A DNA stretch of 64,000 nucleotides, from contig DATDXN010000016.1 in assembly GCA_035289305.1 (NCBI GenBank), forward strand, positions 18,315 through 82,314, read 5' to 3'. This DNA comes from Patescibacteria group bacterium (GTDB taxonomy: Bacteria > Patescibacteriota > Microgenomatia > UBA1406 > HO2-37-13b). Made by a program: the position numbers and the translations under genes. The notes beneath the pieces were generated by a model that was not told the origin of the DNA, made no database searches, and saw only the letters and a list, made by a program, of their open reading frames with translations. This document shows positions 3,603-44,006 of this stretch, in pieces. Numbering within the stretch: the first letter of the stretch is position 1; every line of letters starts with the position of its first letter.

Positions 3603-4286
3603 TTAAAAATAGGATTCATGTGAAATAACCGTAATAACTCCCCCCTGTGCTCCAGGGACAAGTCCTGCTACTACTAACTCATCATCTTTTGCCTCAACTA
3701 CCCGCAGACCCTTCACAGTGACTGTATCTCCTCCCATTCTACCTGCCATTCGTTTCCCCTTGTACACTCGTCCAGGGGTCGTGGTTTGTCCGATTGACCC
3801 GGGTGCGCGCTCACGGTCAGACTGTCCATGTGTCCGTGGGCCTCCTTTGAAACGATGGCGCCTTACCACTCCCTGAAACCCTTTACCTTTTGATACACCG
3901 GTCACAACGATCGGATCATTTTTTGCAAAAAGAAGAGAAGGAGTAATTTCTGATCCGGCAAATAATTCGTGTTGACCGACTTTAATTCCCTGTTTTCCTT
4001 CTTTCTCAATAAATGAGATTCCATTTTTCTTATCAAGCCGTATCTCGCGAAAAAAACGAAGCGGGTCTTTGATGCCCGCTTTTTTCAAAATTCCGGCGCG
4101 TGATTTTTGAATTTTCTTGGTGCCTCCCCATCCAAGAAGGATAGATGTGTATCCATCACGTTGTGGATACTTCACATCAATCACCCTACAGGGACGGGTG
4201 ATAATATGAGTGACTACAATCCGTTTTCCTTTTTCATCAAATGCTGCCTCCGATTTCGATTTTTTACCTACGATAAAACCTTTCAT
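3603..4286 (-). CDS. rplC: 50S ribosomal protein L3
   Basis: The ORF reads MKGFIVGKK...FKGGPRTHGQSDRERAPGSIG. The ATG at 4284-4286 is preferred over the upstream TTG at 4293-4295 given in the ORF track. Confidence 0.9.
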   Translation of the reverse strand: MKGFIVGKKSKSEAAFDEKGKRIVVTHIITRPCRVIDVKYPQRDGYTSILLGWGGTKKIQKSRAGILKKAGIKDPLRFFREIRLDKKNGISFIEKEGKQGIKVGQHELFAGSEITPSLLFAKNDPIVVTGVSKGKGFQGVVRRHRFKGGPRTHGQSDRERAPGSIGQTTTPGRVYKGKRMAGRMGGDTVTVKGLRVVEAKDDELVVAGLVPGAQGGVITVISHESYF

Positions 4287-4293
4287 ACAGAAC

Positions 4294-4318
4294 AAAAAAA
4301 AGCCCCAGATTGGGGCTT
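4294..4318 (-). terminator. Intrinsic-terminator-like hairpin plus U8 in the rplC leader; a possible attenuator
   Basis: Plus strand 4300-4318 is AAGCCCCA-GAT-TGGGGCTT, an 8-bp GC-rich stem, preceded by A8 at 4294-4301. On the minus-strand RNA this reads as a hairpin followed by U8, ending 7 nt before the rplC ATG. Confidence 0.5.
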
Positions 4319-4390
4319 GTCGCTTCCTTCCAATCTGAAAAACTGTGTCAAAAAAACTGCGTGATAAAAATATCTTTTATCATTAATACA

Positions 4391-4419
4391 ATTATATAGT
4401 ATCTTCACGCATGCGTCAA
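4391..4419 (-). promoter_or_regulatory. Sigma-70-like promoter on the minus strand, reading toward rplC
   Basis: The reverse complement gives TTGACG (4419-4414), a 17-nt spacer and TATAAT (4396-4391). The predicted start is near 4384, leaving about 98 nt of leader that contains the hairpin above. Confidence 0.45.
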
Positions 4420-4468
4420 TGAGTAGTTTGACATTGTGTTTTTGGGGCGGTTGCGATACACTATCAAA

Positions 4469-7030
4469 ATGGATACGGGGGAGATTGAGAAACAAGGGCT
4501 TTCGACAAAACACGCCCAAGAACTTCTCAAAATACACGGGTTAAACGAGATACGAGAGAAAAGGGATTTTACTCTTTTTACAGCATTTTTCAGTCAATTT
4601 GACAATTTTTTGATCATTCTTCTTATAGGAGCAGGAATTGTATCATTTCTTTTTGGCGAAAAAATAGACAGTTTTTTTATTTTTTTCATCGTTATTCTTA
4701 ATGCTTTCTTTGGCGTCTATCAAGAATTTAAAGCAGAAAAAGCTATCCAAGCGCTCAAAGTCCTCACGATAAGCACCACCCGTGTCATACGAGACGGGAG
4801 GGAACAAAACATCGATAACAAATACCTTGTGCCCGGAGATATCATATATGTTGAAGAAGGCGCCAAAATCCCCGCAGATTGCCATGTGGTCAAAGCAAGG
4901 CATTTTGAGGTCAATGAATCCTCATTCACCGGAGAATCATTCCCTGTGAGAAAAAACGAAAACAAAAACAATAATCTGCTATATCTCGGAACGGTTGTTG
5001 CAAAAGGAAGAGCATACGCACGAGTAACAAAAATAGGCATGCATACGCGTTTTGGAGAAATTGCGCAAACACTCAAAACTATCAAGGAGAAAAAAACACC
5101 GCTTCAGCGCAAACTCGAAGTCTTTTCAAAACAAGTTGGAATCATTGGTATATGCGCGTCAATCGTGGTATTTTTCCTCTCCTTCATACAAACAAAGACG
5201 TTGTTTGAGAGTTTTCTCTTTGCCGTCAGCCTGGCTGTGGCAGCAGTACCCGAGGGGCTTCCTGCAGTCATGACCATCACCCTTGCGATAGGAGTTGAGC
5301 GCATGAGCAAAAAAAAGGCCATCATCAGGAAATTAAACGCCATAGAAACACTTGGCGCTGTGACGCTTGTTGCAACAGATAAGACTGGAACTCTTACGAC
5401 CAATCAGATGAGTGTGAGAAAAATATGGATTGATAAAAATGTATATGAAGCAAAAACTCCCTCATCCATCTCTCCAGATCATCCATTCAATTTATTTCTT
5501 CTCAATTCAATCCTCTGCTCAACTGCCTCAATTGTCATGAAAGTAAACCATGGAGCATTCGACGTCGTGGGCGACACAACCGAGGGAGCACTGCTTCTTT
5601 TTGCCCATAAAATGAATTACTCACCTGCTGGAATTCGAAAAGAGTGGACAATCCTCGATGAGATGTCTTTTAACCCAGTGACGAAGCGAATGAGCGTTGC
5701 TGTTTCTTCACTCAAAAATCCTCATGAGATGTATGTCTTTAGCAAAGGAGCTCCCGAATCAATTATAGGTATCTGTGACAAAATCATCTGGCGAGGACAA
5801 GAAATAGAATTTGATACAGAGAAAAAAACACTTATTGAAAAGGAATTTCAGTCATTTGCAAAAAAAGGTCTTCGCACGATTGCATTCTCGTATAAAAAGA
5901 AAGATCGCAACCTCCAGTCAAAACAGGTATTTTTGGGATTTGCAGGCATAGCAGATCCTGTGCGAGATGAGGCAAGAGAAGCTGTGGAGAGGGCAAAAAA
6001 AGCAGGAATACGTGTCGTGATGATTACCGGAGACAGCACGCTTACGGCAGAGGCAATCGGAATTGAAGCAGGAATTATCACGCAGGGAGACGATATTCTC
6101 ACCGGTTCCCAAATAGATGCTTCCTCGGACCGGGAGCTTCGTCCTATTCTCGATAAAGTCAAAATATATGCCCGCACGACGCCGGAGCACAAATATCGTC
6201 TGGTCAAGCTTTTGCAGGAAAACAATGTCGTTGCAGTAACTGGAGATGGCGTCAACGATGCCCTCGCGCTTAAACAAGCAGACGTGGGAGTTGCAATGGG
6301 AAAAACAGGAACAGATGTGGCAAAAGAAGCAGCTGATATGATTATCACCGATGACAACTTCGCGACACTCATCAATGCAATTGAGGAAGGACGCAATATC
6401 TTCAATAACATTAAAAATGCCATCAAGTATCTTCTCACGTCAAATACCGCTGAAGTCATCGCAGTTCTTATCACCGTCAGCCTCAAACTACCTATCGTTA
6501 TTACTGCCTTACAAATACTCTATATCAATCTCATAACAGATGGGTTACCTGCACTTTCCCTCGCGTTTTCACCAAAAGATAAAGACATCATGCGCCAAAA
6601 ACCGAGGAAAGCAGAGGCGCTCCTTCAGAAAAAAGACTTTAAATACATCCTCGTAATAGGACTTTTTGGAGGGATACTGACAATTATTTCATTCTTTGTG
6701 GGTATGGGGTTTGATGGCGTGGGATTTGCCCGCACTATGGCTTTTACTACCCTGACACTTATTCAGCCATTTATTCTTCTTGATTTGTGGCTTTCACATC
6801 GCATCATCATTCGCCATTTTAATTTGCTTAAACACCCTGTTTTTTTAAGCTCATTACTTCTTCCGTTTCTCATTCAGCCATTTCTTATATATCAACCGCT
6901 CTTGCAAGATATTTTCAAAACACAGTCTCTTAATCCCTTGTATATTGTGATTGCGTTTTTACTAACGACACTTATTATTCTTCCCATTGAAATAAAAAAG
7001 ATTCTGATGAGGAAAACAGTTACATCTTAA
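4469..7030 (+). CDS. P-type cation-transporting ATPase (P2-type, Ca2+/Mg2+-ATPase-like)
   Basis: Carries the DKTGTLT phosphorylation motif, MITGD, TGDGVNDALALKQADVGVAMG and multiple TM helices. The start is taken at the ATG at 4469; the ORF track begins at a GTG at 4436. Confidence 0.92.
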   Translation: MDTGEIEKQGLSTKHAQELLKIHGLNEIREKRDFTLFTAFFSQFDNFLIILLIGAGIVSFLFGEKIDSFFIFFIVILNAFFGVYQEFKAEKAIQALKVLTISTTRVIRDGREQNIDNKYLVPGDIIYVEEGAKIPADCHVVKARHFEVNESSFTGESFPVRKNENKNNNLLYLGTVVAKGRAYARVTKIGMHTRFGEIAQTLKTIKEKKTPLQRKLEVFSKQVGIIGICASIVVFFLSFIQTKTLFESFLFAVSLAVAAVPEGLPAVMTITLAIGVERMSKKKAIIRKLNAIETLGAVTLVATDKTGTLTTNQMSVRKIWIDKNVYEAKTPSSISPDHPFNLFLLNSILCSTASIVMKVNHGAFDVVGDTTEGALLLFAHKMNYSPAGIRKEWTILDEMSFNPVTKRMSVAVSSLKNPHEMYVFSKGAPESIIGICDKIIWRGQEIEFDTEKKTLIEKEFQSFAKKGLRTIAFSYKKKDRNLQSKQVFLGFAGIADPVRDEAREAVERAKKAGIRVVMITGDSTLTAEAIGIEAGIITQGDDILTGSQIDASSDRELRPILDKVKIYARTTPEHKYRLVKLLQENNVVAVTGDGVNDALALKQADVGVAMGKTGTDVAKEAADMIITDDNFATLINAIEEGRNIFNNIKNAIKYLLTSNTAEVIAVLITVSLKLPIVITALQILYINLITDGLPALSLAFSPKDKDIMRQKPRKAEALLQKKDFKYILVIGLFGGILTIISFFVGMGFDGVGFARTMAFTTLTLIQPFILLDLWLSHRIIIRHFNLLKHPVFLSSLLLPFLIQPFLIYQPLLQDIFKTQSLNPLYIVIAFLLTTLIILPIEIKKILMRKTVTS

Positions 7031-7328
7031 TTTCCACATCAATACCTGCTGGAAGATCAAGATGCATGAGAGAATCAATCGTTTGGTTAGTGGGATTGAT
7101 AATATCAAGAAGCCTCTTGTGGATTTTGAGACCAAAGTATTCTCGACTATCTTTGTCAATAAAGGTTGATTTATTGACGACATATGCCTCTTTTTTTGTC
7201 GGAAGGGGGATGGGCCCCACGATAGAAGCACCAGTCTTTGTGGCAGTATCGACCAATTTTTGACACGTCTCGTCAATGAGACGATGATCAAATGACTTCA
7301 ATTTTATCCGTATCCTTCCTTTTGGCAT
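7020..7328 (-). CDS. rpsJ: 30S ribosomal protein S10
   Basis: The 102-aa ORF MPKGRIRIKLKSFDHRLIDETCQKLVDTATKTGASIVGPIPLPTKK is a classic S10. Confidence 0.95.
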   Translation of the reverse strand: MPKGRIRIKLKSFDHRLIDETCQKLVDTATKTGASIVGPIPLPTKKEAYVVNKSTFIDKDSREYFGLKIHKRLLDIINPTNQTIDSLMHLDLPAGIDVEIKM

Positions 7329-8576: not shown

Positions 8577-8596
8577 ATCCCGATTTATATCGGGAT
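8577..8596. promoter_or_regulatory. Perfect 8-bp inverted repeat with a 4-nt spacer, in the divergent tuf / membrane-protein intergenic region
   Basis: ATCCCGAT-TTAT-ATCGGGAT read directly from the sequence. It could be an operator or a 5'-UTR hairpin. Confidence 0.35.
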
Positions 8597-9633: not shown

Positions 9634-10910
9634 CGAGACGTCAAAATAGCCTCCAATTCTTTCACAAATGAAATATTTTTGTATGAAAATATGTGCGAGA
9701 AACCAAAACGCTCTGCATCGCGCATGATTTTTGCCTGACGTATGACTTTGCGTACCTCTCCCAAAAGCCCCACCTCACCGACAAACACCGATTTTTCAGG
9801 AGCGGGAATATTTTTGAATGAGGAAATAACCGAGGCAATAACTCCCAAATCTGCGGCAGTTGATTTGATCGAAATGCCACCGACAACGTTGACATAGATA
9901 TCGTAGCGATCAAGCGGTAACCCCATGTTTTTGCGAACGACTGCCAGAAGCAACAGTAATTTATTGTAGTCTATGCCCGATGATACTCGACGAGGGATGG
10001 TCAGGAAACTTTCAACCACCAACGTCTGCACTTCAAAAAAAAGAGGGCGATTGCCTTCTGCCACTCCCACGAGTACTTTGCCCGGAGCTCTTTTTGTCTC
10101 CTCATCCAAAAACATGGTAGATCCTGAAGCCTCTACAAATCCTTTTTCCTTCATCTCAAAAATTCCGACCTCATCTGTTGAACCAAATCGGTTTTTATGT
10201 GCTCGCAAAATCCGAAATTGCGACTGACGGTCTCCTTCAAAATACAAAACAACATCTACAACATGCTCAAGTAGTTTGGGTCCGGCAATACCTCCTTCTT
10301 TTGTCACGTGACCGATCATAATGACTGAAATATTGTTTTTTTTGGCAAAGTCAATGACTTGTGCGGCAATTTCTTTAATCTGCGCAGGAGCACCGGGAGA
10401 AGCTTCAATTTTTTTGGAATACACCGTTTGGATAGAATCAATGACGATGATGTCATAGATATTTTTTTTCTCACCCGCAGCCTCCAAAATTCCCTCAATT
10501 TGCACGTCATCGGAAAAATAGATGTGGGCAAGATCAACCCCCGTACGCTCTGCACGCTCTTTCACCTGTTCGCCAGACTCCTCACCGGAGACATAAAGAG
10601 TTTTCATTCCCGAAAAAGATGTCAAAAGAAGGGTCGATTTTCCAATGCCCGGGTCACCGCTTAAAAGGACGACAGATCCTTGAGCAAATCCACCCCCCAA
10701 AACACGGTCAAACTCGAAGAAGCGAGTTTTTTTGCGCTCACGCGTACGGCTTGTAACCTTCGAAAGAGAGATAATTGTTGCTTTTTTCGTTTCTTCCCCC
10801 ACCCCTATTTCTTTTTGTTCACGCATCATATTCCACTCTCCACAGGAGGGACATTTACCATACCACGAAGCTGAACCATATCCACACGAAGCGCAAATAA
10901 ACAATGACAT
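9627..10910 (-). CDS. radA: DNA repair protein RadA/Sms
   Basis: N-terminal C4 zinc finger (CASCGY...CPSCGEW), RecA-like Walker A GDPGIGKST, and a Lon-like C-terminal domain. Confidence 0.9.
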   Translation of the reverse strand: MSLFICASCGYGSASWYGKCPSCGEWNMMREQKEIGVGEETKKATIISLSKVTSRTRERKKTRFFEFDRVLGGGFAQGSVVLLSGDPGIGKSTLLLTSFSGMKTLYVSGEESGEQVKERAERTGVDLAHIYFSDDVQIEGILEAAGEKKNIYDIIVIDSIQTVYSKKIEASPGAPAQIKEIAAQVIDFAKKNNISVIMIGHVTKEGGIAGPKLLEHVVDVVLYFEGDRQSQFRILRAHKNRFGSTDEVGIFEMKEKGFVEASGSTMFLDEETKRAPGKVLVGVAEGNRPLFFEVQTLVVESFLTIPRRVSSGIDYNKLLLLLAVVRKNMGLPLDRYDIYVNVVGGISIKSTAADLGVIASVISSFKNIPAPEKSVFVGEVGLLGEVRKVIRQAKIMRDAERFGFSHIFSYKNISFVKELEAILTSRH

Positions 10911-24809: not shown

Positions 24810-25277
24810 ATGAAATCAACAAAATCAAAAGGTTTTACCCTGATCGAACTGTTGGTAGTGATAGGAATTCTCGCGGTTCTTTTAGCAATTACGTTGATTG
24901 CCATCAATCCCGCACGTCAATTCTCCCAATCAAATAATACCAAAAGGAGAAGTGATGTAAATGCAGTACTCAATGCCATCAATCAATATATGGCAGATAA
25001 TAAAGGAACACTTCCTACTGGAATTGATGCAACGCTTCGAACTATAACCAACGATCCTGTTAATCCCGCAGGCGTTGATCTGTGTACAACATTGGTCACA
25101 CAATACATTGCAGCATTGCCGGTTGACCCATTGACAAATAATGGCACACCAGTCAGCAATTGTGCTGCAGGTACCTATGATACAAATTACACAGTCCAAA
25201 GAAGCGCTGCTGACAATAGAATTACCATACGAGCGCCAGCTGCTGAACTTGGAGAAGTCATTGAAGTAACTCGATAA
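24810..25277 (+). CDS. Type IV (major) pilin with a prepilin N-terminal methylation motif
   Basis: MKSTKSKG|FTLIELLVVIGILAV matches the G-F-T-L-I-E class III signal. Confidence 0.9.
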   Translation: MKSTKSKGFTLIELLVVIGILAVLLAITLIAINPARQFSQSNNTKRRSDVNAVLNAINQYMADNKGTLPTGIDATLRTITNDPVNPAGVDLCTTLVTQYIAALPVDPLTNNGTPVSNCAAGTYDTNYTVQRSAADNRITIRAPAAELGEVIEVTR

Positions 25278-25292
25278 ACGCACATTACTAAA

Positions 25293-25324
25293 CCTCCCCC
25301 ACTTTTTTGGGGGAGGTTTTTTTT
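25293..25324. terminator. Rho-independent terminator shared by the convergent pilin gene and the 25326 gene
   Basis: CCTCCCCCA-CTTTTT-TGGGGGAGG, a 9-bp stem, followed by T8 at 25317-25324. Confidence 0.8.
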
Positions 25325-25325
25325 A

Positions 25326-26030
25326 TTACAGTACGATCATAATGATCAATATGATGACAAGAACCGCAAATACCCCGACAAAAAGATATAGTCGGCGTTT
25401 CCCACGTTTTTGAAGAGAAGGATTTTTATTATTATTGTTTTGCACTTCTTTTTTTTGAGATATAACCTCTTCTTCAAGGAGACTGTACTGACGAAACGAG
25501 TCACTATTTTTGAGGATCCATCGTGCCGCGTCAGTAGTCATTCCTTGTGCAAATAAAACGCCTCCTACAAAATCAGGAATGATTAATTTTATTGGAAAAC
25601 CGTGTTTCACCAATATATCTTTCACTGGTTCGTAAAAATCCTTGTTTACTCCGATTACTTTCATTATTTTTTCCAACCGAAACATTTTTTTCATCACATT
25701 TTTGAAAGGAATTGCATCAAGGAAATATTGTATGCTGGACACTATATTTTCCTTTTGTTCCTCCACAGAAAAGTCTTTTTCGAACACGGCGTTTCTTGAA
25801 ATTACCATAATACTATGAAGAGGTGTGAGTGCATTCACCTGGATAAAAGTGGATATCAACGTGTTTAATTTTTGTATATCAATAATTTCCAAGTCGCGTA
25901 CGCTATCTTGCGGAAACTCACAAGAAGGTATCGCGACTTTATTATCCGAATAAAAACTTAGTTTATTTTGATCGAGGTAAAATACCCCTCCTGCCTTTTG
26001 AAATACCATAGCTACGGCACCTCCCTCCAC
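25326..26030 (-). CDS. Hypothetical pilus-locus protein with a C-terminal transmembrane anchor
   Basis: The 234-aa ORF has a hydrophobic C-terminus LYLFVGVFAVLVIILIIMIVL. No family assigned. Confidence 0.5.
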   Translation of the reverse strand: MEGGAVAMVFQKAGGVFYLDQNKLSFYSDNKVAIPSCEFPQDSVRDLEIIDIQKLNTLISTFIQVNALTPLHSIMVISRNAVFEKDFSVEEQKENIVSSIQYFLDAIPFKNVMKKMFRLEKIMKVIGVNKDFYEPVKDILVKHGFPIKLIIPDFVGGVLFAQGMTTDAARWILKNSDSFRQYSLLEEEVISQKKEVQNNNNKNPSLQKRGKRRLYLFVGVFAVLVIILIIMIVL

Positions 26031-43151: not shown

Positions 43152-44006
43152 ATGAATAAAAAAATGGTAGTGGCGGCGACGGGTCTTGATGGACTCGTGG
43201 GATCACGAGTGAGAGAACTACTTGAGGATAAAATACAGTTCATACCTCTACCCAAAGAAATCATTGATATAACGAAAAAAGATTCGGTAAAACAGGCTTT
43301 ACAGTCAATTGACTTTGATATATTTCTGCATCTTGCAGCGTATACCAATGTAGACCTTGCGGAAAAAGAAAAAAGTCTAGCGTGGAGCGTTAATGTTGCG
43401 GGAACAAAAAATGTATTTGAAGTAGTTTCATCGCGTGAAAAAAAAATGATATACATCTCCACAGACTTCGTGTTTGATGGAGAAAACGCGCCATTTACCG
43501 AAGATTCTCCTCCCCGTCCCATCTCGCACTATGGCATGACGAAATATGAAGGAGAGAAAATCGTCAAAGATCATGCAATGATTGTCCGTTTCAGCTACCC
43601 TTATCGAGCATACTATGAGCCAAAAAAAGATATTGTGCGATCAATTCTTGCTGCTTTGAAAGACAAAAAACACATACAGGGAGTCGTTGATCAAATAATC
43701 ACGTTTACCTTCATTGACGATATTGCGCATGCACTACACTATCTTTTTCTCAACTATGCGCCTGAAATCTATCATGTTGTCGGAAAAGATAGTTTATCAG
43801 CCTATGATGCAATTATGACTATAGCTAAAGTTTTTGAGCTTGATACTTCTCTCGTCTCAAAAACGACATATGATGAGTTTTATAAAGGTAAAGCAAAACG
43901 TCCCAAAAAAGGAATTGTGAAATCAAAGAAAAATGTTTTTTACCCGATGAAAAGTTTAAAGGAAGGTTTAATGGAGATTAAAAAACAAAATTGTCTTTTA
44001 AAGTAA
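43152..44006 (+). CDS. dTDP-4-dehydrorhamnose reductase-like (RmlD family) NAD(P)-dependent sugar reductase
   Basis: The 284-aa ORF has the HYGMTK catalytic YxxxK region and is short-chain Rossmann-like. Confidence 0.7.
   Translation: MNKKMVVAATGLDGLVGSRVRELLEDKIQFIPLPKEIIDITKKDSVKQALQSIDFDIFLHLAAYTNVDLAEKEKSLAWSVNVAGTKNVFEVVSSREKKMIYISTDFVFDGENAPFTEDSPPRPISHYGMTKYEGEKIVKDHAMIVRFSYPYRAYYEPKKDIVRSILAALKDKKHIQGVVDQIITFTFIDDIAHALHYLFLNYAPEIYHVVGKDSLSAYDAIMTIAKVFELDTSLVSKTTYDEFYKGKAKRPKKGIVKSKKNVFYPMKSLKEGLMEIKKQNCLLK

Follow-up and report, generated by a model that had tools for sequence, protein, structure and literature searches.

Cells invest more in the synthesis of ribosomal proteins (r-proteins) than in any other biosynthesis. 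Control through a short open reading frame (ORF) in an mRNA leader is familiar from the classical leader-peptide attenuators of trp, his, phe, thr, leu, ilv and pheST, as well as from the attenuators that sense translation inhibition in front of resistance genes, such as the erm/cat-type leader peptides and the Term-seq leaders of vmlR, lmo0919 and bmrCD. The known r-protein controls of bacteria are autogenous protein-RNA interactions, which are narrowly distributed (PMC3616713). The S10 leader of Escherichia coli, which is located upstream of rpsJ and is found only in Gammaproteobacteria, has five hairpins (HA-HE plus a hairpin over the start codon), of which HD and HE are needed for termination (PMC3616713). 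The leader of the infC-rpmI-rplT operon in Bacillus subtilis is controlled by L20 (PMC1865079), and an archaeal candidate with a presumed protein-binding structure, L4-Archaeoglobi r-leader, was reported upstream of rplC, rplD, rplW and rplB (PMC7247131). Here, we describe the promoter and leader (4419-4287, minus strand) of the rplC-rplD-... operon in a stretch of 64,000 nucleotides (nt) from a Patescibacteria group bacterium (contig DATDXN010000016.1, positions 18,315 to 82,314; hereafter the window). The leader contains a leaderless ORF of 11 codons with a hairpin inside it (P1), an antiterminator strand (box A) and an intrinsic terminator, and on balance the whole is probably a translation-coupled (leader-ORF) transcription attenuator, as judged from sequence comparison and predicted RNA folds.

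Each of the described systems resembles this locus in part. The E. coli S10 leader serves the same gene block (rplC, rplD, rplW, rplB and others), and it too is promoter-proximal and has an intrinsic terminator at which transcription is attenuated. However, the E. coli RNA requires L4 and NusA and has no leader ORF, whereas one 5′ hairpin, a two-state switch and a conserved ORF are found here, and the element does not lie upstream of rpsJ even in relatives in which rpsJ is adjacent. An earlier note, made from the sequence of the window alone, had considered the element an equivalent of the E. coli L4 leader; considering that its position (rplC, not rpsJ) and structure differ and that no sequence or Rfam similarity was detected, the rplC leader is not a member of that family. 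The B. subtilis infC-rpmI-rplT leader is likewise an r-protein operon leader with a choice between terminator and antiterminator, but it is ~200 nt long, has a site for L20 that mimics ribosomal RNA (rRNA) and lacks a leader ORF (PMC1865079). In common with the classical attenuators, the window has a leader ORF, a stop codon just before the antiterminator strand, a terminator directly before the first structural gene and an ORF hairpin as a possible pause site. It differs from them in that there is no regulatory codon run and no generally conserved 1:2 anti-antiterminator, that the ORF is leaderless and has no Shine-Dalgarno (SD) sequence, and that the genes encode r-proteins instead of enzymes for the biosynthesis or charging of amino acids. 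In addition, the signal is expected to be the general capacity for translation, and read-through, not super-attenuation, is predicted for untranslated RNA. The resistance-gene attenuators share with it the principle that the fate of a ribosome on a short upstream ORF (uORF) selects the RNA structure, with slow or absent progress turning the genes on; theirs are drug-stalled ribosomes and usually an anti-antiterminator overlapped by the uORF, whereas here an r-protein operon is preceded by a leaderless uORF. The L4-Archaeoglobi candidate is the only described leader candidate directly before rplC, and it gave no cmscan match to this region at E-values up to 10. Neither the 64-kb window nor six related loci gave a match at the gathering threshold of Rfam 15; when positions 4150-4550 were searched with cmscan up to an E-value of 10, the best sub-threshold matches were terminator-driven (MicC, 34 of the 90 bits required; Phe_leader, 23 of 55). 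Literature searches revealed no description of this rplC leader element.

The window has a low GC content (39.5%) and belongs to a Candidatus Roizmanbacteria-like genome (Microgenomates, Candidate Phyla Radiation (CPR)). A protein similarity search placed the best matches to its L3 (52-69% identity) in metagenome-assembled genomes of Roizmanbacteria, Woesebacteria, Gottesmanbacteria and Levybacteria. The earlier note had proposed a TTGACG-17-TATAAT promoter at 4419-4391 of the minus strand, a leader of ~98 nt upstream of rplC, a GC-rich hairpin with a U8 run that stops 7 nt short of the rplC ATG, and an upstream segment complementary to that hairpin. All of these are present where it placed them (Table 1); the leader measures ~97 nt (4383-4287, minus strand), the promoter is kept in relatives, and the complementary segment forms 8 base pairs (bp) with a predicted alternative fold. 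The note had also suggested folding the leader as a check, and a stable terminator fold was obtained, with a hairpin energy of -12.6 kcal/mol (z-score -3.0) that was equalled by none of 200 shuffled sequences. This hairpin is the top-ranked terminator-like site in the region of 1-20 kb, and further copies of it are absent from the window, where one match with three mismatches at 9843 looks like chance. The U-tract is separated from the rplC ATG by GTTCTGT (7 nt), and rplC has no SD sequence. Since there is no space for a second promoter between the U-tract and rplC, either in the window or in most relatives, the essential rplC operon must be transcribed through the terminator. Every base of box A, CAGAUUGG (4337-4330), is complementary to CCAAUCUG (4313-4306), and because CCAAUCUG overlaps the terminator, the antiterminator and terminator are mutually exclusive. 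An RNA ending at the loop folds as P1 plus antiterminator (~-7 kcal/mol), and the complete leader folds as P1 plus terminator.

Table 1. Features of the rplC promoter and leader and of the neighbouring genes, in window coordinates.
Feature	Position	Strand	Details and basis
-35 hexamer TTGACG	4414..4419	-	Aligns with TTGAC[C/A] in relatives
-10 hexamer TATAAT (4396-4391), inside conserved TATATAAT	4391..4398	-	Invariant or nearly so in alignment of 36 relatives
Leaderless leader ORF, MIKDIFITQFF, 11 codons	4348..4383	-	ATG 4383-4381, 7 nt past the -10; stop TGA 4350-4348
P1, 5′ hairpin inside leader ORF, UGAUAAAA-GAUAU-UUUUAUCA	4362..4382	-	Leader folds
Box A, antiterminator 5′ strand	4330..4337	-	Pairs with 4313-4306
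Antiterminator 3′ strand	4306..4313	-	Inner 2 nt (CC) of terminator 5′ arm, 5-nt loop and first G of 3′ arm
Intrinsic terminator, AAGCCCC-AAUCU-GGGGCUU (4318-4300) into U8	4294..4318	-	Stem 4318-4312 / 4306-4300, loop 4311-4307, U-tract 4301-4294; folding, relatives
rplC (L3)	3603..4286	-	Pfam Ribosomal_L3; ATG 4286-4284; heads operon, followed by rplD, rplW, rplB and further genes
P-type cation ATPase gene	4469..7030	+	Pfam E1-E2_ATPase and related; between rpsJ and the rplC promoter, divergent from leader
rpsJ (S10)	7020..7328	-	Pfam Ribosomal_S10; in upstream tuf-rpsJ unit, apart from rplC
tuf	8551-7367	-	Precedes rpsJ

Support for the two competing helices comes from related genomes. A total of 80 loci were fetched by L3 protein similarity, of which ~45 (Roizman-, Woese- and Gottesman-type) contain the same motif, and ~70 metagenomic relatives were added. 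Helix pairs were counted in 40 protein-selected leaders; the metagenome hits, which had been picked by the exact box/loop pattern, were used for exclusivity, the ORF and P1 only and not for covariation. The shared motif consists of C[A/G]GAUUGG, a spacer of 12-35 nt, GCCCCAAUCUGGGGC and a U-tract, and its end is typically located 3-30 nt before rplC; promoter, ATG, short ORF, box and terminator could be aligned in 36 protein-selected relatives. The antiterminator is paired in 96.9% of cells, including one pair that occurs as AU in 22 leaders, GU in 14 and GC in 4, as well as a change of GG/CC to GA/UC in L012. The terminator is paired in 93.9% of cells, with 23 compensatory (double-change) cells, a number reached by none of 500 shuffles. 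On this alignment, covariation supports both helices, and the G-U pairs point to RNA of the sense strand and not to a DNA palindrome. Sister clades are more informative still. In them the box and loop have different sequences, yet the terminator loop and inner 5′ arm still have a complementary upstream box, such as CGGAUUUUGGG with CCCCGAUCCG (CGGAU../..AUCCG) in Gottesman-type leaders, AUAGAGUC/GACUCUAU, UCGAAGUC/GACUUCGG and UUCUACA/UGUAGAA in Levy-type leaders, and CUCGGAUGAG/CUCAACCGAG in a fourth clade. Compared to shuffled upstream sequence, this complementarity has mean z-scores of -3.2, -2.5, -1.4 and -1.9 in the four clades, values that are not independent because the sequences are related.

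The element was also found to be restricted to rplC. A covariance model of box plus hairpin scored 57.8 bits in the window (E-value 3e-8) and matched each related locus once, a short way upstream of rplC, with no plus-strand match elsewhere in 672 kb. When metagenomes were scanned for the exact pattern, 120 stretches were retrieved; 68 of the 69 that had a T-tract and enough flanking sequence precede rplC, compared with 0 of 44 that had no T-tract. The earlier suggestion of a candidate r-protein attenuator is thus borne out, by conservation, covariation and exclusivity, to the extent of an attenuator of the rplC operon. A further suggestion, that the element had been rebuilt before rplC after its separation from rpsJ, is not supported. 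The distance from rpsJ to rplC is only 110-200 nt in most loci with the motif, and the promoter starts ~10-15 nt past the rpsJ stop; these relatives carry the same promoter, ORF, box and terminator, and therefore the unit predates the separation. By this comparison, the promoter-leader unit is ancestral in the clade.

The promoter matches 11 of 12 consensus positions with a spacer of 17 nt and is joint best among 49 promoter-like sites in the region of 1-20 kb. By itself such a pattern is weak evidence, as 49 sites compare with 43.5 +/- 6.7 in shuffled sequences, but the promoter is in register across all Roizman-type relatives in the alignment, and a -35 hexamer with at least 5/6 matches at a spacing of 16-18 nt is present in 51 of 81 leaders. 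The ATG of the leader ORF, which together with P1 had escaped mention in the earlier note, is kept 7-9 nt past the -10 in aligned relatives, leaving no room for a 5′ untranslated region (UTR), so that the mRNA is leaderless. Such starts appear to be common in this genome: in the window, 6 of 45 long ORFs have an SD-like motif upstream (background 11%), and -10-like hexamers are found 5-11 nt ahead of the ATG in 13 of 50 long ORFs, compared with 7.2% of random ATGs. The genome thus appears, from these frequencies, to be SD-less and rich in leaderless mRNAs, and because such starts are usual, translation of the leader ORF is plausible. Leaderless-type ATGs occur, for example, at 43152, 44029 and 60033 (plus strand), and several more are located on the minus strand.

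The stop codon of the leader ORF has a conserved position. In the window, box A begins 10 nt past the stop. Among 84 unique leaders, 83 have a stop in frame 0 within 2-20 nt ahead of the box, compared to 8 and 27 in frames 1 and 2, and shuffling predicts 0.23 per sequence. Frame 0 is open for 9-18 codons from the conserved ATG and never runs into the box. The distance from ATG to box ranges from 26 to 64 nt, with 81 nt in L025, and the insertions within the ORF (+36 nt in L025, +21 nt in L113 and +24 nt in L155) are in frame. The gap between stop and box has a median of 7-8 nt, a distance that a terminating ribosome can reach across, and the stop falls inside the box in Levy-type and some clade-D leaders. 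In other clades, 26 of 30 leaders have a short ORF that ends in or just before their own box, with 5′ UTRs of ~5-10 nt. Judged by these counts, the leader ORF is under selection to be open. Its peptide, however, is variable (the 84 leaders form 48 clusters at <50% identity), and no conserved run of regulatory codons was found in the 84 unique leaders or in the other clades. In the Levybacteria-type leader ORFs, GGAGG is conserved 12-15 nt before the stop in two reading-frame registers (..AGG AGG G.. and ..G GAG GT..; L049, L059, L061, L068, L070, L071, L073, L074, L078, L079 and L080), which suggests a role at the nucleotide level, for example as an internal SD sequence for an in-frame TTG or ATT start or as an anti-SD pause site.

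Hairpins of at least 6 bp inside the ORF are predicted in 61 of 84 relatives; their arms comprise 47 different sequences, and the mean z-score is -1.3. Together, the leader ORF and P1 suggest a mechanism mediated by the ribosome, in place of or besides one mediated by a protein. P1 does not involve the box, and its loop is variable. In per-sequence folds, the insertions mentioned above form an extra hairpin at the P1 tip with the frame kept. A motif, GUUCGGGAA, recurs at the P1 tip (e.g., in L002, L026, L029, L086, L125, L138 and L165) and is absent from the window leader; it is more common with CGGAUUGG boxes (26/50) than with CAGAUUGG boxes (8/33). Its possible pairing with UUUCCGGA at the box may create an anti-antiterminator in part of the family.

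These parts can be combined into the following scheme, of which we infer the translation of the ORF, the direction of the switch, the physiological signal and the role of P1. Transcription would start at, or 1-3 nt before, AUG 4383, and the RNA would open with the leaderless ORF containing P1. Box A would be made ahead of the terminator 3′ arm, and if free it would pair with CCAAUCUG and block nucleation of the hairpin, such that polymerase would read into rplC. A ribosome at the leader stop, or moving on from it, would cover or unwind box A; the more stable terminator (-12.6 versus ~-7 kcal/mol) would then fold, and the transcript would end at U8. Transcription of the rplC operon would be inverse to the promptness of leader translation, and free translational capacity would feed back on r-protein mRNA. 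P1, which the ribosome would have to melt, would probably serve as a pause or synchronization hairpin, as the trp 1:2 hairpin does, or as a stabilizer of the 5′ end.

Several observations weigh against this scheme. In ~30% of leaders the stop is located 11-20 nt before the box, which is past the ~10 nt covered by a terminating ribosome, and therefore occlusion there would need steric effects or post-termination scanning. Within Roizmanbacteria the conservation of box and loop exceeds the needs of pairing, which could reflect recognition by a trans-acting protein. Pairing between UCGGGA at the P1 apex and the box region can be drawn in 26 of 50 CGGA-type compared with 8 of 33 CAGA-type leaders; a trp-like 1:2 structure would then be possible, with the opposite outcome for untranslated RNA, although the duplex between box and terminator is the stronger of the two pairings in 79 of 84 leaders. 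RNAalifold returned no P1 consensus for 24 ORF regions, a heterogeneous alignment, because the position of P1 shifts between sequences, and support for P1 consequently rests on the per-sequence folds. Finally, there are incomplete leaders: L035 has promoter, box and terminator but no ATG ORF, and L011 and L014 have the promoter, a 5-codon ORF with P1 and the terminator but no recognizable box.

A different explanation, which we regard as unlikely but worth serious consideration, is autogenous control, in which excess L4, or L3, L23, L2, S19, L22 or S3, would bind the leader and favour the terminator, the ORF being secondary. The E. coli S10 operon, attenuated through L4 (PMC3616713), and the B. 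subtilis operon attenuated through L20 (PMC1865079) are precedents. Within Roizmanbacteria, loop and box hardly vary even though L3 is only 50-69% identical, and the box variant CGGAUUGG equals positions 1303-1310 of E. coli 16S rRNA, a weak hint of rRNA mimicry. In contrast, no conserved structured domain is present besides the two competing helices, the P1 loop being variable; box and loop are replaced wholesale in sister clades, where r-proteins and their rRNA sites should be conserved; no Rfam r-protein leader was matched; and the strong selection on ORF frame and stop position would be left without an explanation. As to the mimicry itself, the comparison was made with E. coli 16S and 23S rRNA, as neither the window nor 200 loci contain rRNA. 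The variant CCGGAUUGGAA of the box (4330-4340 in the window) agrees with E. coli 16S positions 1302-1312 (CCGGAUUGGAG) at 10 of 11 positions, where ~0.04-0.1 such matches are expected by chance, and this was judged too weak to use. These positions are in the 3′ major (head) domain, and we take them to be helix 42; the rplC operon encodes S19 and S3, which forms the context of this weak lead.

It is also rather improbable that the arrangement is constitutive, with the leaderless ORF loading ribosomes on, or stabilizing, a polycistronic mRNA without SD sequences and the helices fixing the level of read-through or insulating rplC. In a genome that is SD-less and has leaderless starts, a 5′ AUG is perhaps the sole efficient entry for ribosomes; rplC itself has no SD sequence, and neither a sensing domain nor a regulatory codon run is visible. 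Nevertheless, loading of ribosomes needs neither a terminator and antiterminator nor a stop held just before the antiterminator strand, and a leaderless rplC would be simpler in a genome in which many genes are leaderless. Moreover, two conserved competing helices with compensatory changes are a hallmark of a switch.

Sensing of Phe-tRNA, by which a ribosome stalled at leader Phe codons would free the box and cause read-through, is very unlikely. It is suggested by the Phe-rich peptides of Roizman-type leaders (MIFFFVRDNRE, MVFFRNWKKFIG and MIKDIFITQFF) and by the weak Phe_leader match (E-value 0.12). That match, however, is driven by the terminator and U-runs, the U-rich 5′ arm of P1 (UUUUUCC) is where the Phe codons lie, a conserved run of regulatory codons is lacking, and peptides of other clades, such as MTTLRRVSLTT, MTRQSEISEVTKSLG and MEVNQHR, contain no Phe; nor would Phe supply have a physiological logic for L3 and L4. 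An independent small gene unrelated to rplC, i.e., a promoter, an RNA of ~90 nt and a terminator that would produce a small RNA (sRNA) or an 11-residue micropeptide, is highly improbable: the architecture is sRNA-like and the best sub-threshold Rfam match is the sRNA MicC, but the U-tract typically lies 3-30 nt from the rplC ATG, too close for a separate promoter to fit in the window or in most relatives, the unit does not occur apart from rplC, and the peptides are poorly conserved. Least credible of all is a DNA operator in which box and loop are the inverted repeat of a dimeric repressor. In the window, CAGATTGG...CCAATCTG does form a perfect inverted repeat, but 14 of 40 relatives have CGGATTGG with CCAATCTG, which is G-U in the sense RNA and an asymmetric repeat in DNA, the spacing of half-sites varies, and the repeat is located 50-80 nt downstream of the transcription start. 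A riboswitch was rejected as no conserved aptamer-like domain is present, and the element is not regarded as the rpsJ terminator either, since it is fully intact in the window even though the nearest co-directional gene upstream lies 2.7 kb off, beyond an antisense gene.

With regard to the surrounding genes, the product of rplD was identified as L4 by Pfam Ribosomal_L4, and the rplD ATG lies 3 nt past the rplC stop. The gap between tuf and rpsJ is only 38 nt, and the 3′ ends of rpsJ and of the convergent ATPase gene overlap by 11 nt (7020-7030). Insertions of 0.5-3.5 kb between rpsJ and the rplC promoter are recurrent, occurring in at least 18 relatives (L006-L009, L021, L026, L030, L032, L036, L037, L039, L042, L052, L056, L061, L070, L073 and L074), and it is probably the promoter of its own that lets genes insert repeatedly ahead of rplC. 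Upstream of tuf, a hairpin (AUCCCGAUAUAAAUCGGGAU, 8577-8596, minus strand) is located ~25 nt 5′ of the tuf ATG (8551) and downstream of a TAGAAT -10-like box (~8636-8631); an interrupted U-rich stretch follows it and no ORF was seen, and it may be another leader element, belonging to the tuf-rpsJ unit. One other canonical intrinsic terminator was detected in the 60 kb scanned, at 25290-25319 (plus strand), with a 12-bp stem and a T-run. It lies between the convergent ORFs 24810-25277 (plus) and 25326-26030 (minus), is flanked by an A-tract and a T-tract, and is probably bidirectional.

The main r-protein operon of a CPR lineage is thus preceded by a widely conserved cis-element with defined parts (AUG, stop position, box and loop). 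The separate promoter and leader of rplC also account for the way in which insertions can part it from rpsJ. A new RNA family, useful in annotating related genomes, could be built from the alignment. To our knowledge, nothing is known about r-protein regulation in the CPR, whose members are not culturable. If the translation-coupled attenuator proposed here is true, we know of no described case, and found none in the literature searched, of leader-ORF attenuation of r-protein genes or of a leaderless uORF that acts as a sensor. As a broader and more tentative possibility, translation of the leaderless mini-ORF of Microgenomates may require a supply of free, initiation-competent 70S ribosomes, each successful round turning the antiterminator into the terminator, such that r-protein mRNA would fall as ribosome capacity rises; in these organisms, this feedback may replace the autoregulation by r-proteins and rRNA mimicry that is found in model bacteria.

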